DNA of 60,000 nt, the filler included, from Hausera hauseri (Eukaryota): NCBI GenBank assembly GCA_046269625.1. It is 13 parts of 13 records of this genome, joined end to end, with 100 filler letters (N's around TTAATTAATTAA, not from the genome) between each part and the next. Parts side by side here need not be neighbours in the genome. Positions count along the whole stretch, not along the records: positions 8,762 to 12,888 come from JBJURY010744654.1; 12 more parts are not named here. One strand, given 5' to 3'. Both the position numbers and the translations under genes were made by a program. The notes under the pieces were generated by a model. That model made no database searches. It was given only the letters and a program-made list of their open reading frames with translations, and had not been told where the DNA came from. This document shows positions 2,458 to 59,338 of the stretch, one piece after another (positions within the stretch are counted from its first letter, which is position 1; each line of letters starts with the position of its first letter).

Positions 2458-2570
2458 AAATTTTCGAGGTGGAAGATCGGGACCCGCCTATGGGCCCGAT
2501 GTGGCAGCAACAGAGTCCCGCCGTGCCCAACCAAATGGGTCAAAGGGCACCGGTCGCTGTGGGCACCACA
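2458..2570 (-). repeat. Gypsy family A LTR 5' head (about 113 bp) inserted into a Polinton penton gene and joined to MED12
   Basis: Minus strand starts TGTGGTGCCCACAGCGACC and aligns with 9145-9256 and 20447-20559. The TG end abuts mid-penton sequence at 2571. Confidence 0.85.
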
Positions 2571-4583: not shown

Positions 4584-4683
4584 NNNNNNNNNNNNNNNNN
4601 NNNNNNNNNNNNNNNNNNNNNNNNNNNTTAATTAATTAANNNNNNNNNNNNNNNNNNNNNNNNNNNNNNNNNNNNNNNNNNNN
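4584..4683. other. Artificial contig-joining spacer (first of 12)
   Basis: N-run + TTAATTAATTAA (stops in all six frames) + N-run, 100 bp. Repeated at about 8662, 12889, 18286, 23256, 27808, 31885, 36320, 41254, 45821, 50464 and 55807. Adjacency across spacers is not biological. Confidence 0.98.
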
Positions 4684-7367
4684 GACACCATTACATGTTG
4701 ACTGTCTGAATTGAGCCAAAGTGCTTTTTCAACGAGAGGATTGTATTCACCAAAGGGTCTGAAAGTAATGTAAAGATTGTCATCGTGTTGCGGATAAAAC
4801 TGTGTGACATGATACAGAAAGTTATAGATGGCAAATTTCGGACAGCGCATTATTCTGATACGTCTCAAATTTGGCATAGAATCCGCTGGTGGTGCTGTTC
4901 CCGAATTTATAACAATCGCTTGCAGTTCTGGACAGTTTTCCAGCGTGATACTTTTCAATCTGTGACAAGAGATCAAAACTAAATGTGTGATACCGACCTT
5001 TTCCATATGTAATGTTGTTAAGTGAGCAAATGAATTTTGTTTTAATTCAATTTTATACAACCGTGGTTTGAAATAAAGCCGCAATGAGGTCGTATCTAAA
5101 GATACATCTTGGGCTTCCCACTCCCTGGGACTGTGTTTTACGTTAGATTCGGACTGTGTAAAACTTATGGTGGATGGGTTACCAAAATTATCGATGGGAC
5201 ACGAACACAACTTGCAACCATATTCTGTGATGTTGATTGCTGATATCTTTGTGTTTTTAGAATTTGATGTGTAGCCTGAATTCGATTGGTGTCTAGATGA
5301 CAGATTTGCTTTCTGAAAACACTGTTCATCTGACATTTGAAATATGTCCCTCTGCCACACAGCATCAAGCCAATCAATGTTACCACAAACACAAGTTTGA
5401 GTGGAACTGCTCTGAAAATCACTCAAAACACATTCTTCCAAATTTTGCGAACTGCCGATCCAAGACTGTTCTGAAATTCGACGCTTCTTTACTGATTTAT
5501 CTGACTGCGACGTGTCTTTCTTAGCTATTTTGGATGATTTTGGAGTTGGAAATAAAGACTTGTGAATCAATATTCCATGGTTAAGAAAATTGTTAGTGAT
5601 TTTCTCGTTAGAACGCGAACGTTTTCGTTTTGACGTTCCGATCAACTTAGATACTTCTGAGGATTTCGAGGATTCTTCGTGGACAATGGTAGATGTCTGT
5701 TGATTTGAATCGTCTAAAAGCACCAAATTTCCCAAACCCAAATTTTCCAGTCTATGAACCATACTGATGCTTTTCGTCGCATTAACAATCATTGATGCTC
5801 TTAGGAATTCATTTTGTCTGATAGAAGCACCAAGATTCGTATGCTGGGCTCCTAAAACTTGAGCTCCTGCGGCATTATAGGATGCCAAACCAACCGTACT
5901 CATTCCAAACATTCCGCTATCTGCATTTGGAATTCTGATATCAGTGGTATTTAAACTTGGAATAAATATTCGAGAGAACCGATTTGTTGCTGGATTAGAA
6001 TTATCCATAATATCGCCGACATTTATGGATGTATTCGTCAAATTATTATTAGTGAGATTGAATGAATCGTGTGAATTAATACTTCCAGGAGGTCGAATTG
6101 GGAATATTGGGCAGTTTCTATCACAGAGGCCTTCGATGGTTTGATTTCTGACTGTCATGTTCTGAGTATTCATAGGAAATGTAGTTAGCTTCCCACGAAG
6201 ATTAAAACCATGAAATACATGAAAAGGAATGTTTTGATTACGATTGTTACTCAAGCAATCACTGAAAACAGAACTGTCGATTTCTGCCTGAAGAACATCA
6301 CATTTTGGAAGTGGTAGAAATAAGTCACGAAGTACCAGCATTTCGAGCTGAGGAAATGCAGTGGCAGGATGATTTAAAATGAAAGATATAGTCTCTGGTC
6401 TTATTCCGGGGCAATTTTCAAGGGTCAATGATTTGAGAGGAAATGTGGCGGGTAATTGGTCGTCATTTTCTGAATTATTGTCAAACGGATTTATGGGTTT
6501 ATTCCCAATGGGATATGGCCACTTCCTTGGAGACCACATCATGGGATCTTCGACATAAATAGCATGACGAAGATGAAGTGATATGAGTTTCGGAGCGATT
6601 TTCATCAATGCGGCTACTCCTCTATCTGTTATCTTACAAATAGGTAGACTATGATCTGGCGAGTCATGAAGCCCCAAATTATGAATTTCGACACCAGTAA
6701 GCATTGACTGAAACGGATCTTGATAACCCAAAATGATACTCTCCAATTTCTGCATAGTAACTTTTTGATCAACCATAGATTTTTCAAGGACACATTCATA
6801 CGCCTGTGCCAGCATTAGTAAATTCAGAAATCGCAATAAATCAAATTCCAAATCTGACGAAGGCAACGGTGTGTATTTTTCCAAAATATGTTGAAAAGCC
6901 CAAGCGGAACATTGGAAATGGGTGCAAGCTACTTTCGTACTGTCAAGTTCAATTCTGGTTTCCTTTGATCCCAAATTACAATGTAAACAACCGATATTGA
7001 ACAAAATCGAAGCTTCTTCCAGCCGGACATCATTGCATGATATCGGCGAACCTGATATTGGATCATCCCAAGTCCAAATGACACAATTAACGGAATCATC
7101 GGAATTTAATGGAAATCTTGCTTTCAAAAACTGCAACTGACAGAAGTAACGTTTCAAACTGAGCAACGAATTTAGACTTTCAGTACCAGTGAGACAATTT
7201 TTACGTAAATTGAGAAATTCTTTAAATGCTGTATCATTTACCGCAACTGTATCGTTTACCACAGCTTTACATTGGACTTTCAAATTATATTTCTTTACTG
7301 ACACCATTGTTAAATTTTTGTTATATTGGTTTTGTGGATATAAAATTCTGGAAGATGTACGTGCCAA
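4684..7367 (-). CDS. Uninterrupted chimeric ORF: partial BRO1 domain (PTPN23/HD-PTP-like) fused in frame to the central and C-terminal part of an FBXO38-like protein; 3' end runs into the gap
   Basis: aa ~47-203 LKRYFCQLQFLKARFP...EEASILFNIG...VACTHFQCSAWAF...LMLAQAYECVLEKS is BRO1-like. From MQKLESIILGY onward, IHNLGL...ITDRGVAAL...LTLENC and VGITHLVLISC...YITFRP resemble FBXO38. About 895 codons with no stop or intron. Confidence 0.8.
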
Positions 7368-7385
7368 AATGTAGGTATTGTCGAG

Positions 7386-7489
7386 TTATAGAGAATGATA
7401 AAAATCCGATTATTACGGTAATAAAATTCCAACAGAATTATAGAGAATGATAAAAATCCAATTATTACGGTAATAATATTCCAACAGAA
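7386..7489. repeat. Tandem duplication of a 52-bp unit
   Basis: TTATAGAGAATGATAAAAATCCRATTATTACGGTAATAAWATTCCAACAGAA twice, just upstream of the chimeric ORF. Confidence 0.9.
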
Positions 7490-8390: not shown

Positions 8391-8661
8391 GAATCCGCGG
8401 CACCACACTACCCCCCGTTACGGAAATGACACTTTATTAGAGAAAAGAAAGTTAGTAGACAGAGTAGTGGGGTGTAGAAGAACTTGACAGAAGCAAATTT
8501 TGATGTGATTGAAACAGAAACGTGGAAAGAATACGTTTTGTGAGCTATTGCATCTTAGTATGGACAAGGCGTTGAATTCTGTCGACATTCTGTTCTCTGC
8601 TGTATTTGCTAAAGGTAACAGTCTTACTCTTCTTACTGTGTTGTTTAATTACTTGTTGAGT
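8391..8661 (-). mobile_element. Gypsy family C 3' region: PPT plus 17-bp LTR head
   Basis: Aligns with 59322-59590. Minus strand reads ACGGGGGGTAG (PPT) then TGTGGTGCCGCGGATTC, then unrelated sequence. Confidence 0.8.
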
Positions 8662-9144
8662 NNNNNNNNNNNNNNNNNNNNNNNNNNNNNNNNNNNNNNN
8701 NNNNNTTAATTAATTAANNNNNNNNNNNNNNNNNNNNNNNNNNNNNNNNNNNNNNNNNNNNATATTTTCCGAATAGCTGCTTCATAATTAAATTGACATA
8801 TTTTGGATATTGAATCACCAGTCAATTTGTAATTTCTTTGGCATGATTTATGAAAGCGTTCATTCCAATTACTTCTTCTAGCGCCCTTTGCATCACTGAA
8901 AATTGAAATAAATTGCTCGTTGTTAGACTGAGTATATGGCAGGATGAAAACGGAGCAGACGCCTTCAAAATATTCGTGATAGATTGCATACTATTGGTCC
9001 TTTTACTGACTGCATTGTTTGCACTTAGTGAATTGCTAGATCGAACAGCAATAGCCAGTTTACCGAAAGGGTTAATATCGGTGGCTATTGGGGTAATTGA
9101 ATTAACAATATACTCGGTAATCCTCTCGTCTAATTCGACGGATT

Positions 9145-9256
9145 ATATTCTTAAAGCGGGAGTCGGACCCGACTAACGATCCGACGCGGCGATATAGGAC
9201 GCCCGGTCGTGTCCAATCAAACGGGCCAAAGGACACCGGCCGCGGTGGGCACCACA
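9145..9256 (-). repeat. Gypsy family A 3' LTR head (about 112 bp), followed by unrelated host-like sequence (8762-9144)
   Basis: Minus strand: end of integrase ORF (9335), CGGGGATGA purine tract, then TGTGGTGCCCACCGCGGCC. Homologous to 2458-2570 and 20447-20559. Confidence 0.85.
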
Positions 9257-12200
9257 TCATCCCCGTGGCAAAGTGAAAACTATAAAGATCAAAATAGACG
9301 GAAAGAAAAAATCGCTAAACCAAAAGTGTCTGTGTCAACTGGTCTTAGTGTGAACAAGACGTTGGGTGCCTTCTACTAATTTGTCCCTGCTATACATGCT
9401 AAATGTAACTGCGTGTTTTGTTTGTATGCGATGTGTTTGCTTGTGGAGTATGGAGTTTGGGAAAAAATTGTCAGATTTTGTTGTGGGTGTTGTGTCGTGC
9501 AAAGACGAGTCAGGATGAAGCGAAGAAGAATGTGAAGGAGGAAGAGAGATTGGTGGAGACGGATGGTTAAAGGTATTTAAGAGAGTGTTAGAAGACAAAG
9601 GACTGACAAGAGGTGTAGTAGTGGATGAAGGAGAGACAGAAGTTGGAGTAGAAAGTGGAATTGTATTGGGCGAAAGAGTAGAAGTAGAAAATGAAACAGA
9701 AGGATTGGTAGAGACAGGAAGAGTGGTAGGGGTAGAAGGTGTGGAAAATGATGAAGCGGAACTAGGAACAGAAAGAGAAGGTGGAACAGGTGTAGCAACA
9801 GATATAGGAATATCAGGGAGTGTAGGAGTAAGAAAAGAGGTTGACGTGTCGATTGGTGAAATGTCGTCGACAAAGAAGGCGGGCTTCAAGTTTGTGATAT
9901 GCACCGTAAGTTCTTTGTCATCTTTAGAAATAATAGCGTTATGTGAATGCAGCTGTATCAGTTTATAGGGCCCAGATACCGCGGCTGAAAACCGCACGGC
10001 GTCTGATTTTTTAGCCATACGAATTTTGCCGAATACAAATCTTCGGGTAAATATGTTTTGTTTTTATGAAGTAACGTGCAAAACGAATATTTGCTGACCG
10101 TAACAAAGTGACTTTGTGCCGCCCGTATCATTTCGCCTGTAGGAGTGTCGTCTAGGGCAGTTACTTCGAATAGTGATCGTATAGGAGCTCCGAATAAGGC
10201 TTCAGTAGGTGAGCAGACGTAGTGTTCCGCCAGCTGAGCAGAACAAACGGAAGAAGATTTGTCCAACTAATGTTGGACTCTGCAAGAATTCTTAGTGACG
10301 TTTTCTATGTGCGGTGGAAGCGTTCTACAAGGCCATTCGATTGGGGGCGATAAGGCATAGTATGTATGTGTTGGATCCCTAAACGGTTAATGAGGGATTT
10401 GAACAGGTTGGATTCAAACTGTGAACCCTGGTCCGTGATGATTAAGCGAGGTGATCCAAACTTGCTAATCCATGTACGAATGAAAACATCAACTATGGTA
10501 TCGGTGTTCGTGCTCCACAGAGGGATGGCTTCTGGCCATCGCGAGGAACGGTCCATCATGGTGATGATGAATTGATGACCGTTGTTTGGAGGAAGAGAGC
10601 CAACGATGTCGATATGCACGGATTCGAAACGCGATGTGCAGGGGAAGTGGAACAGTGGTGGCTTTAGATGCTTAGTTGTTTTGTATTTTTGGCAAGCCAC
10701 GCACTCCTTAACCCATGCGTGCACATCAGAACGCATTGACGGCCAAATTACTTGTCGGTGGAGTAAACGAAAGATGGCTTTAGCACCAGGCTGATGTAGC
10801 GAATAAACACTGTTGAATGCTTGCCTTTGCAATGATGGTGCAATAATTATTACGAATGACATAGTTTGGAAGTGTCTAAAGCCACGCCGTCAAGGATTGT
10901 GCAAGACTTGAAAGAATTAAGCTTGTCCTGAGGTGGCTGGTTCTGTTGAAGTTGAGCTTGCGTAAAAATCGGTGAGAAATTAATCGAACTAACCGACCTA
11001 GATAAAAAGTCGGCAACCAAATTATTAACTCCGTTAATATGTTTTATGTCGAAGTTAAATATCGTCAATTATGATATCTGTCGTTCTTGGCGTGTGGAAG
11101 GATGTTTCATAGCCATGATGTTAAGTAAGGGTTTGTGATCGGTCTGTATGGTAAAATAGCGAGCGATAAGTAGGCGGGAGAAATGCTTTAAAGCGAGAAC
11201 GATGGCCAATAATTCTTGATCGAACGTTGAATATCTAGTTTCAGGGGTTGTTAGCTTACGAGAAAAAAATTCTGGTGGTTGATTTTCTCCTTTATAGATT
11301 TGGTGAAGCACAGCACCTACCGCAGTAGTTGAAGCGTCTCTGGTAAGGATAAGTTCCGTGTCAGGCTTGGGGAAAGCGTAAATGTCGACGGTCTTAATTC
11401 CTTCACGTAGCTTATCACGCTTATCAACCAATTCAAATGTCCACTGAATTGGCTGATGTTTTTTGACGCCGCTTTAGTGTGCAAATGGCGCTGTCAGTTC
11501 GGAACAATATGGTATATATTTATGTACAAAGTGTAGTGTACCAAGGAAGCTGCGCATTTCAGTGGTCGTATGTGGTAACTGGATATTCTTAAAAGCTTCA
11601 ACTCGGTCTGGTTTGGGAGTGGCCTGTGAAAATCTGTCATTTTGCCTCGGTCATGCCTTGACAATTTGATTGCGATTCAGCAACATTAAAAGGATAATTA
11701 AAATTCTATTTCACTTAAAATTTTACAATGATAGTAAATATGAATATTTAAACAAAACGAAATGACTATATAATTTTGTGTGCTATTGGGTGAATGTGGG
11801 CGCCACATGGCCGTCTGGTGAAATAACGTGGCCCAAAAAGTTGATGCGCTTTTTAAAGAAATGGAGTTTGTCAAAATTGACTCGGAGATTATGGTGTTTA
11901 AGGCGTTGGAATAGCGCGCCGAGGTGTTCATCGTATTGTTTGGCTGAAGACGAAACGACCAGAATATCATCAATGTAAGGGTGTGCAAACGGGAAATCTG
12001 ATAGAATTGATTCAGTATGTCGCTGAAAAGTTTGCGCGGCATTTCGCAAACCCAATGACAAACACATATTCGTAGAGACCAAAAGGAGTAGTGACAGCAG
12101 TCTTTTCTATGTCGTCGGGTGCCACCGGTATTTGGTGATATGCTTTGGCCAAATCGATGCTCGAGCAAATTGCGGTTAAATTAAGGCGATACAAGATATC

Positions 12201-12888
12201 TTTAATGAGTTGCAGGGGGTACGCATCCGTAATAGTCAAGTTGTTCAACTGTTGGTAATCACCACATGGTCTGAAAGTTCCGTCCTTTTTTGTACAACAT
12301 GTAAAGCCGACGACCAAGGAGATTTGAAACGGCGAACAATGCCGGAGCGTTTTAGTTCTAGAAATTCGGCTTACACGGCCTGCCTATGACGAGATGACAG
12401 TAGTCGTACCTTTTGGCGTATTGGTCGTTGATGTTGAGTAACTATGTGGTATAAAGTACTGTTTGCAGGAGTCAACGTACGATCTTTTTTAATTACGCGT
12501 AGACAAGATGTGTTGAGGAATTGCTGCAAAGTTGTAGGCAACTGTGGGAGATTCGATGATGATGGTGAAACAGCTTGAGTAGTAGCGGATGCAATTTGTG
12601 AATTATTTGCTGATGTAAAGTCAATTGGTGTTTGGTGCAAGATAGTCGATTTAAAAATGGTGTTGGATGAAGTGATTTCGTCAAGCGAATTAACGTTGGT
12701 GACAATACCACAATTGGCGACATCGAACCTCGATTGAATATCAGTATTATTATTTAAAAATTTACGAAATGAAATATTACGGAAATTTGAATTAGTTTTT
12801 GGTTTCCTCAGTGTTAGAGTTGAGATATGGGACGAAACGCGGAGTCTGTCTAATACCATTTATTTCCAAGTCATGTTGTACATGAAAA
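9257..12888 (-). mobile_element. Ty3/Gypsy retrotransposon family A, degenerate pol (RT-RNase H-integrase with Ser/Thr/Pro-rich tail)
   Basis: RT motifs RPCGDY, DLAKAYHQIP, KTAVTTPFG and YIDDILV. RNase H motifs DASTTAVGAVL and FFSRKL...ELLAI. Integrase motifs HQPG...CVAC, HIDIVG, DQGSQF and NGLVERFHRT. Domain order is RT-RH-IN. Confidence 0.95.
11625..11807 (-). mobile_element. 183-bp TG...CA insertion with 5-bp target-site duplication inside the Gypsy RT
   Basis: TGGCC at 11620-11624 and 11808-11812. Minus strand starts TGTGGCGCCCACATTC and ends TTTTCACA, with an AT-rich interior. RT sequence (ISPDG / PKPDRVEAF) resumes on both sides. Confidence 0.85.
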
Positions 12889-20446: not shown

Positions 20447-20559
20447 TGTGGTGCCCACAACGGCCAGTGCCCTTTGGCCCATTTGGTTGGACACGGCCGA
20501 GCGTCAGTTGCCGCCGCGTCGGGCCTATACTCGGGCCCGATCATCCGACTCGAGGATTC
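20447..20559 (+). repeat. Gypsy family A LTR 5' head (113 bp) inserted antisense into a family A pol
   Basis: TGTGGTGCCCACAACGGCC...CCGACTCGAGGATTC. The TG end abuts mid-pol sequence at 20446. Confidence 0.87.
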
Positions 20560-50463: not shown

Positions 50464-50578
50464 NNNNNNNNNNNNNNNNNNNNNNNNNNNNNNNNNNNNN
50501 NNNNNNNTTAATTAATTAANNNNNNNNNNNNNNNNNNNNNNNNNNNNNNNNNNNNNNNNNNNNTCATTTTTATCCAAA

Positions 50579-51145
50579 ATGTCAGTCTTATTTGAACGAT
50601 CTTATCCAAACGAACCGCTACCGAACGTGCAATATCCTGAAGTTTATCGAGAACGAATCGTTCATAAAATTCGTGAATACAACATTCTGTTGATACTTAA
50701 TGAAGTTTGGACGGAACAATTTATGTGCTTTTTCTCATTCTCACTTAAGTACATTCTTACCAGTCGTTGTTCGATTTTATTCGGATTGGATAAAGCACAT
50801 TTTGTTGAAATACCTACAAGACTTAAAGATAATGACGATAAAAACCTGTTCCGTTATCAAGATATCAAGGCTGAAACTCCCTCACAAATTCTCGATCCCA
50901 TTTTTGACAAAGTAAGCAAGGAATATTGCAAAATACTCCTGATTTTTGAAGAAGCCCGGAAAATATCGTTGGATATGTCGTTTATTTATTTGAATATTTC
51001 GGAAAACGAAGCGGTAAAGTTGGTTAGAACGTTAATGGGAAATAATTTGATGGTGAAAAGTTACGACAAGGTGTATGAATGTAACATGTCCCGCGTGAAT
51101 GGTCTGTTTCGGGATTATTTGTCAAAGCAGTACTTAGAAATGTAA
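50579..51145 (+). CDS. Unidentified 188-aa ORF immediately upstream of the vigilin fragment
   Basis: Open frame with protein-like composition. No family recognised; may extend 5' into the gap. Confidence 0.35.
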   Translation: MSVLFERSYPNEPLPNVQYPEVYRERIVHKIREYNILLILNEVWTEQFMCFFSFSLKYILTSRCSILFGLDKAHFVEIPTRLKDNDDKNLFRYQDIKAETPSQILDPIFDKVSKEYCKILLIFEEARKISLDMSFIYLNISENEAVKLVRTLMGNNLMVKSYDKVYECNMSRVNGLFRDYLSKQYLEM

Positions 51146-51193
51146 AAGTCGTTTACTCTCTTTTATCTAACGTTATTTCACTAAGTATCAGTT

Positions 51194-53045
51194 ATGGTTG
51201 AATGTCGAAATGAGAGACCCGCACGACACGGCTTTTCCATCTTTGGAAATTTCACAAAAGCCGGAAAATAGTCAAATGTCAATTCCGTTCTCCAATTACT
51301 TTGCCAAAATGAGTTTAGTTTATTCAAAAAAATATGCAACATCCAGTCAGACAATCACAACCACATTCGCAATACCATTTGACGAAAGAAATTCATTGAA
51401 CCGGATGCCGTTGCGTCAAATTCACTGAAACGAAATTTAACAGAAATCTGCTCCAGTTGGGCAGTTCGTGTGGAAAGTCACATAGCACCGGATCAGAGTT
51501 TGAGAATTTTCATCATTGGTGAAAAACAATCGACATTAGATGCGAAAAAACGTGTATTGCGATTGCTTCAGACACAGAATGAAATCAGTTTGGATATTCC
51601 AAAAGAATTTCACAAAAGCCTCATTGGAGCCAAAGGAGCAACATTGAAAGACTTGGAAAATGAGTCAAGCACGCAGATTCTTATTCCGAAGCCAAATGAA
51701 AATTCCAATATTATTCGTATACGAGGTCCCAAAGGCGGTGTTGAACATGCAAAACAATTAATTCAAAAGCTTGTGGATGAAATGTTAAAAATTGGTCAAC
51801 AGGTAGTTGAAATTGACAAGAGGTATCACCAGTTGGTATGCCACAAGAATAATTCAAGTCTTTATGTTGTGATTGAGCGAACGAACCTTCGTCTCGATAT
51901 TCCTCCCTTCTCTGTAAATAAAAATGAGATCTCAATTTCAGGTGATATAGGTGTCACTCAAGCTGCCAGTATTTTAAAACAGACATATAATATGATGCGA
52001 GCAAATAATCAGGAATTGCAAATTGAAATCCCAAAAGAAAAGCATCGCTTTGTTATTGGTCCGAAAGGAAGTGGGATTAAAGAGATCTTGGATAGCACAA
52101 ATGTTTGGGTCGAAATAAATGACAATAAACTCTCAGATGCTTCTCCAAATACAATTTGTCTTTTGGGACCAAAGGAAAACCTGGGACCGTCTCTTACAAT
52201 GGTTTTCATGAAATCGGAAAGCATCAATATTATAACTGTTGATGCACCTGGGTCGCTTCACAAGTATATTATTGGTAAAAATGGGTCAAATTTGGAAGAA
52301 CTAACAGGATAAAGTTAATGTTCATTTGAGTTTTGAAACGGAAACCAATCAAATTATAATTGAAGGAGCACCAGAAGAGGTTGAAGTAGTAGCGGAGAAA
52401 TTGAAAAAGAAAGTATTCGACTTTCAGACATATTTAACTCAGATACAACTTGAAATTCATCCTGTTCATATTAAAAATGTCATCGGTACGGGTGGATCAA
52501 ATATTCAGAAACTCAGAAAGGAAACAAATTGCAGTATTCGATTCTTCATGGACCCAACAAACAGATTTGTAACAATTGTTGGAAGTCCAGCAGAAGTGGA
52601 AGTCTCTAAAGCATCTCTGTTGAAAACTGCAGAGCACATCGAAAATACGAAACGTAAAGTTGTCATTCTCACACACTATTTGATTCCACAGCTGATTGGT
52701 CAGAATGGTAAAGGATTAAAAGAAATCAAAGAAAAATATCCAGAAGTCCGCTTTACAATTCCATCACCAGAAGCAAAAATAGATTTAATCACTTTACTAG
52801 GTCCCCGTAAAGATGCGGATTCTGTTGCTCTCATTCTTCAGAAAAAGCATAATGGTTGAGTCCAATTACTCAGAAAAAATCATTATACCTCGAAAATATC
52901 ACAAAGTCATTATCGGTAGAGAAGGAATAACAATCAAAGATTTAACTAAAACAACAAATACAAAGTTTCAAATTCCTCATCCGAATGATGAAAAGGATGA
53001 AATTATTATCACAGGGAAAAAATCCGACGTTCAAAATGCCATTCA
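51194..53045 (+). pseudogene. HDLBP: Intronless, disrupted 5' half of vigilin (multi-KH domain protein)
   Basis: Tandem KH GxxG repeats HKSLIGAKG, HRFVIGPKG, HKYIIGKNG, NVIGTGG, LIGQNG and HKVIIGREG. N-terminal AFPSL and ITTTFAIPFDER as in vigilin. Frameshifts; similarity ends abruptly. Confidence 0.9.
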
Positions 53046-54341
53046 TAAAGATCAGCTACTTGTAGCTATTCGCGGAAAAACGCCCGATGGAGAATCTCTG
53101 AATAGTAAAACTATTTTAGAAATGACTTTGGAACTGAAAGATGACTCTAGTAGGATAGTTGTTCACACTACTGCACCTTGTTTCGTACCGAAAGTTTATA
53201 CAAAAATTATAACTTACATGTCTATTTATTGCAATAAAACGCTTTCGACGTATAGTGAAAGACAGTCGTTCAAAAACACCAACGACACTATTGATCGATT
53301 CAACAATTTAGAATCGGCGTATCTACTCAGTATACTTCACATTCAAGAGAATCGATCAGTTTTGGCCACTGCAGTATTCCAAAGGTCACAACTCAAATCC
53401 GGACATATCACCCGTAAGACGACGCGGTTGACCTGCAAAGACACCTATGTGCAATCCCCACCACTGGTCATGGAGAAATCTATACACTATCAAGTGAGAT
53501 ATTTTTTATACATTTTTTATCCATGATATTTTTTATCCATTTTTCCCCTACTACCTTGCCCATTATTTTGCTGGCACAACATAGCTTTCTCGTAGTTTTG
53601 TAAGTAGGGAAATATCTCAATCTTATTTACATAGACGCAACAGTAGTTTCGGACTTGTTGTATATTCATATAAGCGTTTAGCCCATACCATTCGTTGTAA
53701 GATATCCAACTACGTGTTCACGACCCTTTTTAGATCATTTTAAGACCATATTCCGATCCCTAAGATTCATCGAAAACAAACCAGTTAATGATTACAGTAC
53801 CCCTTTTACATTGTGTCTACTGTTTGTTATTTGTCGAAATCAAGTTGTCAGTGAAAAGCTACTTCTGCTATGTGGTTTCACTTCCAAATCTCAATCTACC
53901 GCTTGTCATAATCGAATGCTGACGGAACAGATTATAAACTTACTTAACTATTCCGTAAAAGTTAGGAATTTAATTGTAACAAACGGTCACATCAAAATTA
54001 TATTTAATAATAATCCGTCGAATAGTAAACAATTTAACGAAGTTTTCAGTTTTTCTTTACGAGATTTTGTATGCGATTTAATAAACATTACATCGTGGGA
54101 AAATTGGGATTATTCAAATAGATGGTATTCATCATTTTACATTGGTCCATGTTGGCAGCATTACCTTTCCTCTTTAATTACCATTCCACCCGTTTTTGGT
54201 CGTCTCGAATATTTGACTTACAACTTTTATCCAGTAAAGGCGTCCCTTGGAGACAGATATTGCTATTATTCTGACAGGACTCCTACCACCTTTGGAATTC
54301 TAAATAATTTCAGCAAAATACTTCTTTGTTTTAATCCTTAG

Positions 54342-55806
54342 GTGATAAACTTCGTCTATCCTATTCAACCGTTGCTTCACTTTATCCTTTGTCCACAACA
54401 TAACTTTTCGGGATACCTTGCACTCGCAAGAATTCGCAAACTTGACGACGGCCACATAAAAATTAAGGAAGTGGTCCAGGCACTTCATTCTTTTGAGTTG
54501 AAAACAAACCATAGCATGATAAATCAATCAACCTTCCGTACTACATCAATAAGTGCCACGCCATGGTGTGTTTTTTCACTACACCAACAACTAGAGTTTA
54601 CACCGACTATACCTTTTTCATTCTTTCTAAACAATCACCATTTACTGACGCATAGAATGACAAATTCGATAGATGCATCCTACCTACACAACTACGTACT
54701 ACACGTCGCCAACCTCTTCGATTTTTATCTTACGTACAATAATCTTCCAATAACTAACACCAATCTCAATAGCGTTTCTGTACCTTCAACCCATTGCATC
54801 ATCATTCACATACACATTTGCTTACATCGTGGAATGGAATCATCACCTACCATTAACACTACTGACCGAAATACCTCCAAAACATCACATTTTGAGTTCA
54901 ACCAAAAATCGTCGATCGTTACCACGCCATCGTCTTTCAGTAGTTATGCTTCTACAGTCTCGCCAGTCAAACACACTTCTCAATGCACAGAGTATTTTAT
55001 TGACCACAACAGTCTAACAAAACATGGCTTAGCTTCCACAAAGTCTGGTTGTAATCAAACAATATCACTGATCCGGTAACTAAGGCCTATAACCTGCTTT
55101 GTCTTTTACCAACAACTGTAAAAACGGCCATTCATGATTTGCTCCATATCTTCTAGAATCCTGATCCATACACGCATCTTTACAACTCCGTTTTGAAACT
55201 TACGGAACCATCTATGGACTCAATAATTCACCGTTTCTTCAACGACAATGCAATGGGGGAGCAAAAACTATCTGATTTCCTAAGAACTTCACTCGTGCAA
55301 TTTCAAACACTTGGCGTGACCAAACAACATAACGCTGATTTTCTGCGACGCTACTTCTTGAATGCATTGCCCATACAAATTAAGGCCTTACTTACTGTCG
55401 TTGAAGATTTGACGACTCTTGATCAATTGTCCGAACTGGAGGACAAAACATATGAGGTTTTGAACGCACACACTCAACCAATCATTTCTGTAGCAGTTAC
55501 TACCAACAATGTTTCACTCGAACAGCAGTTAAACGAATTACGCGCCAAAAATGCGGCACTCCATCACACCATCAACTCTATCAATGATAAATTGAATAAT
55601 CTTTCTTTACAGTGTCGTAATGTGCCTTTGTCTAACTGAACACGTTCTCCCTTCAGAAATCGAACATCTTCACCCACGAGGTCGCTTGTATGCTATTATT
55701 ACACCAAATTTAGTAACAACGCAAATAAGTGTTGCTTAGGTTGTAAATATTATTCGCCAAATCTAGATTCAAGTAATATAATTTGCGTCTATCATTCAAA
55801 ATTCGG
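54342..55806 (+). mobile_element. Ty3/Gypsy gag region, degenerate
   Basis: NITDPVTKAYNLLCLLP, MGEQKLSDFLR...FLNALPIQIK.LL...LDQLSEL.DK, a coiled coil, then CYYYTKF...A.KC...C knuckle-like motifs. The 5' boundary is uncertain. Confidence 0.72.
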
Positions 55807-55906: not shown

Positions 55907-56485
55907 AGGGAGCGCAGGCCTGCAGCTGTGGCGCTCAGAGCCTCCACAGCTGTGGCGGAGGGAGGAGGTGTCAGCCATGCTTGGCACTCCTCGCCGAGTC
56001 AGCTGGGAATGGCTGGCTTCCCTTCACACGAGCGTCAGAACACATGATGCACTGCTGGAGACGCACGGAGCACCGTGTGGCGCAGCGAAACACTTCTAAA
56101 ATCATCTGACAGATTTGCAGCAAAAAAAGGCAAAATCCAATCTTTTCGGGGCAGCTGCCAACATCAATCTCAGCCGATGACGACACGTGGAATAACTCAT
56201 ATATACAAAGATTATTTGTGACAGCTCAATAAGCAGAGGTTTGTTTATTTGGAGGCTAATTAGCAGACCGCCGGCTTTTGCATTCGGCCAGCTAGCCGGT
56301 CGCCATGGCGAAAGTCTGAGAGGGGGCAGTTGACCACATTCAGGAAGTCACCCAGAATCCACAGACGGAGAGGGTCTACTCAAAGAACGTCTCTCCACCG
56401 CTGACTCCAGGGTCCTCCAGCATCTCTGTGCGAGGCCCCGCCCTCCCAGGATGCGCGGTGACTCCTGACATTTCGGTCCTCCTGC
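55907..56485. other. GC-rich non-coding segment compositionally foreign to the rest of the window
   Basis: Abrupt change from AT-rich MTR4 sequence to GC-rich, vertebrate-like sequence near 56485, with no gap. Confidence 0.55.
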
Positions 56486-56489
56486 ATCA

Positions 56490-58436
56490 GAATAAGTTTG
56501 GATTTGTTTTTGTTTTTCTTCCTTTATCTTATAGTTTTGTAATACTTCTGGAAAGTTTCTTAGTTTAAGTAGTTCATGGCTATCTAGCAGTGGGAAATCT
56601 TCAACTATGGAAAAATTCAGAATTAGAATCTCACTTAGAGAACAAATGCTTGCAAATTTTAGTGATACTACTTCAGCAGATGCGGCTTCGTCCGGTCGAG
56701 GTGGTCTTATAAGGGCTTTTTTATTGTCATTGGGCATGGCAGCTACTGCCAATAAACACTCAACCAAATAAAATGTATATTCGGGTGCTGAATTAGGAAA
56801 TTTTGGCAGCGGTGGTTGTTGTCGTCTTATATTGACGACTGCATCCCAAACGAAATCATCATTTTCACGTTTGACTTTAATTAATTGTCCCGGTTGTAGA
56901 AAATTTACAAGTCTGGTGGATTTTTGAATGTTATCCATTTCTTTATCATAAGCCAGTTGAAGTGCTTCATTCAACTCATGATGCAAAGAAACGATTTCTT
57001 CATGTTCAATATGGATTTTTATAAAATCTTCGCTTAATAGTTTCAATTGTTCTTCTGCTTCGGGTATAAAAGCCTGATTTTGGAATTGAAACAAAAAACT
57101 TCTCTCAATCATGTATTCTGGATTGATACCTTCAACTTTCATCAAATTGAGAAGCGTATTGTACGTAATATGAAAAGCGGAATTCAAAGGATCTGGGCTG
57201 CCTTGAATAATATGTCGAGCACCCGATTCATTCATTGTTTTATCGACCATAAAAATAATTGTACCTCACATCTTTACCTCTCTGACCAGCCCTACCTGAC
57301 ATTTGAATATGGTCATTGGCAGAGATCTAGCGATATTCGAATCCATCGAACTTTCTTGCGGTAGTAAACAAAACAGTCTTTGCCGGCATATTAAGACCCT
57401 TAGCAAAGGTTTCGGTTGCAAAAAGACACTTCAATAAACCTTCAGAGATCAGGATTTCAACAGTTTCCTTTAATATTCGCAAAAAACTGCCATGATGTTC
57501 ACCAATTTCTTTGTGTAAAAGTGGAAGCAGTGTAATGACCTGTGGTAACTCCTTATCGACATCAGAAAGGCATTCTATTGAGTTTTTGAAAACTTCGTCA
57601 ACAAAAGCAGTTTCTTGTTCGGAGTTAAAATTCAGTTTAGACAACTGCATTGCATAAAGCTCACATTCCTTCTTACTGAAGGAAAATACAATCGACGGCT
57701 CTAATCTATGTTCCATAATTAATCGGACAATTTTAAAAACATTCGATTCGTTCTTCAATGATCGTGCCGCCATCAATAAGCCGGTACGTTTACTACTGCT
57801 ACTCTCGGAGTTAGGACCAAATTTACTCATAACTGCTTTAAAATTATCATCGAGAAAGTTACCCTTGTCGTCGATAACTAACAATAAACCATCGCCATCA
57901 CCAGGGAAAATGTAATGATGCAATATATCCGCACGAAATTTCGTGAACACAACATGACAAAGTTGACTATGGAGAAAAGAAACCCATTCGGTAAACTGTC
58001 GAGCATTCGGAATAGTTGCACTGAGGGATGTATGACCAACTTCTCGCATAATCGAACTTCCTCTGTGCAACATAGACTGTAAAATTTCTGTTGTCATAAT
58101 TAAGACACTCGCATTCGGAGATAATGTAACATCGCCAGTGAGTAATTCCATTTCGAAAAATTCATCCGAAAATTCCCGATACTTTTGGTTACTGAGGACT
58201 TTATTGAATGTTGTAATAACTTGTTGTTTGTCACCCAATGCTTTGGCTATTGCATATTCTGCCATTGCAGTTCTTTTAGCTGATGTATGATCTGAAACTA
58301 AGGCCTACTGACGATTTTCAATGCGTAAAATTGCCGCTTTTTGAAAACTATCTGATTTAAACTTAAACGTCTTCAAAGGTGGTTGAATTGATTCTTTCAA
58401 ACCTTCATACTCCACTGTTGGAGGGTATGACACCAT
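56490..58436 (-). pseudogene. MTREX: Intronless, deleted and disrupted MTR4/SKIV2L2 RNA helicase fragment
   Basis: FQK.AI..IEN.Q..LVSDHTSAKRTAMAEYAIA (dead Walker A), TGDVT...IMTTEIL, LSATIPNARQF, IVFSFSKKECE, LFATETFA.GLNMPAKTVLFT and DPLNSAFHITYN.LLNL. The DEIH motif II segment is deleted. Confidence 0.93.
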
Positions 58437-59308: not shown

Positions 59309-59338
59309 TGTGGTGACGCCAGAATCCGCGGCACCACA
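59309..59338 (-). repeat. 30-bp mini-LTR with 7-bp terminal inverted repeats
   Basis: Minus strand TGTGGTGCCGCGGATTCTGGCGTCACCACA, directly after the purine tract ACGGGGGCAG. Confidence 0.78.

Follow-up and report, generated by a model that had tools for sequence, protein, structure and literature searches.

A 183-bp insert within a decayed Gypsy element

The window analysed here, a 60,000-nucleotide stretch of Hausera hauseri DNA (filler included), comprises 13 eukaryotic contigs of ~4-5 kb apiece joined through N linkers; the genome is very repeat-rich. The contig at 8762-12888 carries a Gypsy element of a family with GC-rich LTR heads, which we refer to as family A (Table 1). The matches of this host element to RVT_1, RT_RNaseH, rve, and Integrase_H2C2 fall in separate frames of the minus strand, as in a decayed copy. 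Its integrase matches proteins at 42-57% identity, three of 21 of which are named, all three from insects, and its 3' LTR begins at 9256, behind the purine tract. The reverse transcriptase (RT) is interrupted by an insert of 183 bp that starts, on the minus strand, with TGTGGCGCCCACATTC and ends with TTTTCACA. A sequence-only reading had described these ends, the TGGCC repeat around the insert, and an AT-rich interior that differs from the GC-rich family A head; all are present as described, with RVT_1 matches upstream and the RT_RNaseH, rve, and Integrase_H2C2 matches downstream.

Table 1. Features of the insert and its host element. Depths are relative to the X1 contig that bridges the left junction (the junction contig); summed contig depth is not copy number, and these ratios serve as a ranking only.
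Feature	Position	Strand	Basis
Host element: broken Gypsy RT upstream of the insert	11813..12383	-	RVT_1 E 3.4e-07 and 4.7e-14, in two different frames
Right TSD copy, TGGCC	11808..11812	+	Sequence; no X1 or X2 contig bridges the right junction
Repeat unit of solo-LTR type, 183 bp, 30.6% GC, TGTG...CACA ends	11625..11807	-	Multicopy throughout; both boundaries end other copies
Putative 5' integrase recognition end, TGTGGCG	11801..11807	-	Matches the CsRN1 motif TGTGGYG (PMC3601003, Table 3)
5' part of the unit (~109 bp), most widely shared	11699..11807	-	Depth 70-162x junction contig over 11699-11802; organisms A and B
TATA-like hexamer TATATA at +36, weak, putative function	11767..11772	-	Motif scan
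AATAGA at +98, candidate variant poly(A) signal, then T-rich sequence; weak	11705..11710	-	Motif scan
Middle part, multicopy at a lower level	11659..11698	-	Depth 18-50x junction contig; 15 contigs unlike the window at 11695
Final part of the unit, ending TTTTCACA, with the lowest sharing; terminal inverted repeat of 4 bp only	11625..11658	-	Depth 7-8x junction contig
Left TSD copy, TGGCC	11620..11624	+	Sequence; 3 X1 contigs skip 188 bases, with 5 letters that fit on either side
Host element: remaining RT, RNase H, and integrase downstream of the insert, several breaks	10308..11619	-	RT_RNaseH E 8e-26, rve E 1.3e-13, Integrase_H2C2 E 1.3e-12
Host element: purine tract at 9257-9264 with the GC-rich family A head of its 3' LTR; sequence unlike the insert	9150..9264	-	9150 end approximate

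The window has 27 segments, 100-600 bp long, that are bounded by TGT...ACA and by an exact 5-bp direct repeat, so that the pattern of TG...CA ends plus direct repeat is not significant by itself. Two DNA runs have contigs that match the insert region: X1, which may share its source with the window, yet whose contigs at 11695 all differ from it, and X2, which is labelled as a different organism. No RNA run is listed with such contigs, and this is uninformative about expression. At the place of the insert, at least nine joints (among the 15 listed of 60) skip 187-200 bases, in 21 X1 contigs and one X2 contig. The exact 188-base skip occurs at one joint with 24 letters on its shorter side; another joint at the insert site has 64 letters on its shorter side and is carried by six contigs. 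Because this empty site is present in copies of the host family, which are paralogous copies and not an orthologous allele, the insertion is real. RT-type sequence resumes right behind the insert when the flanks are translated separately, and binned X1 depth along the contig is 13167 before the insert, 929 within it, and 34096 after it.

The left junction is bridged with 0 differences by one X1 contig (142 nt, depth 9.42), and depth is 0 at 11811-11829, where the right junction is bridged by no contig of either run. An assembly chimera would be in keeping with this unbridged junction, with the short contigs of the window, and with the repeat content of the genome, but the host RT resumes exactly at the 5-bp duplication that the empty sites define and the left junction is present in an X1 contig; we give this reading a negligible probability, and the sequence-only reading had likewise dismissed it. 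The 183-bp piece is confirmed as a real insertion with a 5-bp target-site duplication (TSD) in a decayed Gypsy RT, and the empty sites, the exact skip, and the left-junction contig back the earlier claim of an integrase-type event.

Family A heads of ~108 bp run into unrelated sequence at three places in the window. Across 9313-8900, depth drops from 6924 to 617 and then to 27 behind the head that begins at 9256. A 106-codon stop-free frame of low depth lies behind this head at 8825-9142 (minus strand), where X1 has one diverged contig; the frame has no Pfam family and one weak, unnamed protein match (E 6e-05). The heads at 2464-2570 (minus strand) and 20447-20553 (plus strand) interrupt a repeated element and a Gypsy RNase H region. 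The ORFs of the repeated element, which have no Pfam match, are presumably Maverick-like. Neither interrupted sequence picks up again before its contig ends, and a CA end accompanied by a 4-6-bp duplication was found at neither head.

Copies of the insert and their boundaries

Alignment of X1 to 11603-11829 (227 bp) at 80% likeness recovered 133 of 15.5 million contigs, 6 of them at ≥99% identity, 14 at 95-99%, 67 at 90-95%, and 46 below 90%; over this stretch, 113 of the 133 are thus <95% identical to the window. The contigs that differ from the window number 15 at 11695, 18 at 11732, and 18 at 11759, many more than a single locus would give at an interior position. The interior of the insert is multicopy along its whole length. 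Both of its boundaries are family boundaries, because other copies stop at 11807 and at 11623-11625: X1 has eight contigs (agreement 0.5), and X2 one, that leave into other flanks directly behind 11807, and depth arithmetic at the 3' end yields four contigs, of which three other than the junction contig start at 11623-11625. The contig of greatest depth there (~54) begins at 11625 in both arithmetic solutions.

Elsewhere, the insert found little. BLASTN against the window returned the self match only, the next best matches being of 12-17 bp (E 0.28); exact 20-mers of the insert had 0 occurrences in viral contigs, and a phage collection gave no match. Three metagenome contigs with insert 20-mers have 56% GC and just 20-21 matching bases, and we set them aside as chance matches.

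All eight X2 contigs lie within 11702-11807, and one (record 9) covers these 106 bases with 4 differences; the X2 contigs are short or clipped near 11702, with little visible beyond. Behind the head come the same 90 bases in both organisms, and overlapping X1 contigs (11661-11740, 11668-11762, 11703-11788, and 11728-11807) tie ~147 bp to the head. These results largely contradict the central proposal of the sequence-only reading, that the insert unites a 16-bp head with unrelated host cargo and a tail. Taken at its most specific, as ~160 bp of recently captured host transcript that was integrated with the head and a short tail as one cassette, the proposal draws on a 17-bp head ending ATTC, which stands behind a purine tract at 8407 and 59338 with different sequence after each, and which the first 16 bases of the insert resemble. 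The supposed cargo, however, is multicopy, is mostly <95% identical among its copies, and is joined to the head over 106 bp in the second organism, and seven of the bases shared by the heads are a clade-wide motif (see below). The insert also has no ORF, poly(A) run, or splice donor: its longest stop-free run of 31 aa is reached by 84% of shuffles (mean 38.9), leaving no coding signal, and neither an A8/T8 run nor GT[AG]AG is present. At the proposed joint at +16, no loose end was seen among the 12 listed of 39 rows, in a comparison to which copies that have just the 16-bp head in common are invisible, being too short for contig alignment. We consider capture of this kind very unlikely. Rfam returned 0 matches to the insert at E up to 1, and its folding is not unusual (z -0.30).

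The sequence-only reading had set against its own claim a high-copy ordinary solo LTR with a constant interior. Such an LTR is largely what the copies show: the interior is multicopy and linked to the head, and other copies stop at the same two ends. Its constancy holds in part only: the 3' 35-80 bp of the insert are common to far fewer copies, and some copies have other sequence there. Sharing falls in steps of ~120, 36, and 8 times the junction contig, a ranking and not a count of copies. These steps would fit a family LTR whose 5' part is fixed over ~105 bp, not 16 bp, and whose 3' part is exchangeable, the last 40-80 bp being one or two old host-derived or foreign patches that were gained in reverse transcription and then amplified. 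Candidate exchange points lie near 11659-11663, 11717-11721, and 11755, and the family A heads that give way to unrelated sequence, with a depth of 27 behind the head at 9256, are also in its favour. At odds with a plain solo LTR, two contigs (records 3 and 4) span 11663-11735 and then extend by 46 and 86 letters that disagree with the window's tail, and one further contig retains both ends of the insert yet skips 71 bases.

Several results weigh against such exchange, which we hold to be unlikely. No segment of the insert is single-copy, and no host source was identified for the 3' part. The private differences of the window's copy are clustered at 11695-11706, where they clip short contigs, and the drop in sharing near 11700 is therefore partly technical; the X2 contigs, all eight of which are short or clipped near 11702, belong here too. 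Judged by eye, five of ten internal loose-end rows represent the insert itself in shifted or diverged form; the other five, which speak against a plain solo LTR, are unlike it, one of them comprising 10 contigs at 11755 (median 13 letters). In favour of a plain solo LTR, only 7% of the X1 contigs run on unlike the window for ≥20 letters. Equally doubtful is a wider form of the idea, a genome-wide system in which CsRn1-like Gypsy elements would keep ~105 bp of the LTR's 5' part fixed while the 3' part is overwritten time and again by patches derived from foreign or host RNA; the insert would then represent a third family, with two nested patches visible as sharing steps, a degenerate 3' integrase end, and a 5-bp duplication.

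Likeness to other heads and to known elements

The start of the insert had also been described as similar to both other kinds of head in the window. A 13-mer of the head, with ≤2 mismatches, has 5 matches in the window versus 1.30 expected (0 of 100 shuffles), a likeness above chance; against the family A heads, however, the alignment stops after 12-13 bases, seven of which are TGTGGYG. PMC3601003 (Table 3) lists this sequence as the 5' integrase motif of LTRs of the CsRN1 clade in many hosts, and being clade-wide it marks the clade and not a shared cassette. For the tail 10-mer, the window has no excess (12 matches versus 11.2 expected), and the tRNA-Trp primer binding site (PBS) pattern has 4 matches there versus 8.4 expected, with no PBS match above chance.

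Other element ends in the window have their own arrangements. A second head family, at 8391-8407 and 59322-59338 (both minus strand), consists of a G-rich purine tract and the same 17 bases, TGTGGTGCCGCGGATTC, followed by different sequence at each place. Downstream on the same strand are a 901-codon stop-free frame with a BRO1 domain (4683-7385) and pieces of an MTR4 helicase (56351-57265). A 52-bp tandem duplication (7383-7489) is found at the start of the BRO1 frame, and contig 13 opens (55907-56350) with sequence of higher GC content that stands apart from the rest of the window and may be foreign DNA or a misjoin. At 59309-59338 (minus strand), a near-palindromic sequence of 30 bp, its termini forming a perfect 7-bp inverted repeat, lies directly behind the purine tract. 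The ends of a third Gypsy-like family, at ~23993, 33607, and 41450 (plus strand), have a purine tract and a 15-bp TAGA...TCTA palindrome that pass into unrelated sequence in all three contigs. Within 50564-55806 (plus strand), vigilin-type KH-domain frames stand upstream of a Gag-like frame on the same strand, and neither a 5' LTR nor a PBS is recognisable in between; a protein search with the vigilin piece gave one weak match. We take the frame that follows, which Pfam does not match and which contains a degenerate CHCC-like motif near 55690, to resemble a CsRn1-type Gag.

With the CsRn1 clade (CsRn1, PwRn1, and AgCR1-14), the insert has in common the TGTGGYG 5' end, an imperfect 3' inverted repeat, and a length within the 146-407 bp given for AgCR LTRs, in which imperfect 3' ends are usual (PMC2582038, in excerpt). 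Its own 3' end, TTTCACA, fits the clade's motif MSYYAMA at five of seven positions, a departure that is to be read beside the likewise imperfect 3' ends of published members. The TSD is 5 bp, versus 4 bp in PwRn1 and AgCR1-14 (PMC2582038), which suggests that elements of the insert's type make 5-bp duplications, unlike the published CsRn1 members. The tRNA-Trp PBS and CHCC Gag of the clade are not linkable to the insert, to which no internal sequence was found joined. The insert behaves like a CsRn1-type solo LTR, but its 5-bp TSD and its 3' end miss two clade features (the 4-bp TSD and MSYYAMA), so that we classify it as a solo LTR from an undescribed Gypsy family and not as a CsRn1 member. 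CsRn1-like elements are described as abundant in tapeworms (PMC12471100), and LTRs of 145-198 bp with 5-bp TSDs are reported for Mag-lineage Gypsy elements of Culex, where the solo-LTR route is also mentioned (PMC3286476).

We favour, as the probable identity of the insert, a solo LTR, likely produced by recombination between LTRs, of a separate short-LTR, CsRn1-like Gypsy family. A short-LTR Gypsy element, full-length or deleted, would have entered a family A copy within its RT, the element's integrase making a 5-bp staggered cut that duplicated TGGCC; its two LTRs would then have recombined and left one LTR between the TGGCC copies. The AT-rich interior would be the family's own sequence and correspond to U3-R-U5, and its resemblance to an untranslated region would follow because U3-R-U5 forms the ends of the element's transcript. 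The less-shared 3' part may reflect subfamily divergence or recombination between related LTRs. No second LTR, PBS, polypurine tract, internal sequence, or parent element of the insert family was seen in the window or in the run contigs. AATAAA is absent from the insert. The order of the TATA-like hexamer and of AATAGA, which we take to be one of the variant poly(A) signals, is that expected for U3-R-U5; we rejected these motifs as evidence, as 228 of 2000 shuffles produce a TATA with a poly(A)-signal variant behind it.

The closest counterparts by description are ta-TRIM and lennie of taeniid cestodes, for which TSD-flanked solo LTRs and a recombination route that keeps the TSD are reported (PMC4558846, in excerpt). 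Like the insert, they occur as a single short TG...CA unit within a 4-5-bp duplication in many dispersed copies, and lack a canonical AATAAA, having instead an AT-rich region that contains a variant signal. The insert differs in that no parent element, PBS, or transcript was found for it, and the likeness is one of description.

The ends of the insert could also belong to a miniature element, non-autonomous and mobile as the whole 183 bp: a derivative of a Ginger-type DNA transposon or a directly integrated one-LTR product. The TGT...ACA ends are shared with Ginger1 and Ginger2-Tdd, TDD-4/5 have a TSD of 5 bp as well (PMC2836005), and only dispersed ends, never internal retroelement sequence, were recognised beside the insert. 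The 5' end, however, is the CsRN1 LTR motif, and the insert has no long terminal inverted repeat: its terminal complementarity is 4 bp, versus terminal inverted repeats of 40-270 bp in Ginger1 and 50-180 bp in Ginger2 (PMC2836005). Such an origin is scarcely probable.

Bearing on captured host sequence

The template switch that readings with cargo need is a described mechanism. In the LTR-mediated retroposition of Tan et al. 2016, a piece of mRNA takes the place of internal ORF sequence lying between two LTRs, and its parent gene can be identified (PMC5131818, in excerpt); the interior of the insert, by contrast, is multicopy and no parent gene was found. A narrow search of open-licence literature found no capture inside an LTR and no recombinant LTR subfamilies of this layout, which does not prove their absence.

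The sequence-only reading had taken the insert as a complete unit showing that family A cassettes are integrated. A TSD-flanked solo LTR says nothing about the cassettes of another family, and because full-length insertions ordinarily leave solo LTRs behind, the insert lends that claim no support. It has no bearing on whether family A units of head plus host gene are integrated, and it should not be counted as evidence for host-cargo cassettes. If its 3' part were indeed exchangeable host-derived sequence, LTR-resident capture would extend to a further family, and the copying step could be tested by comparing nested copies. As a solo LTR, the insert is ordinary; it would mark a third short-LTR Gypsy family in this genome and serves as a control for the cassette claim, in that a TSD together with a TGTGGYG start does not imply cargo.
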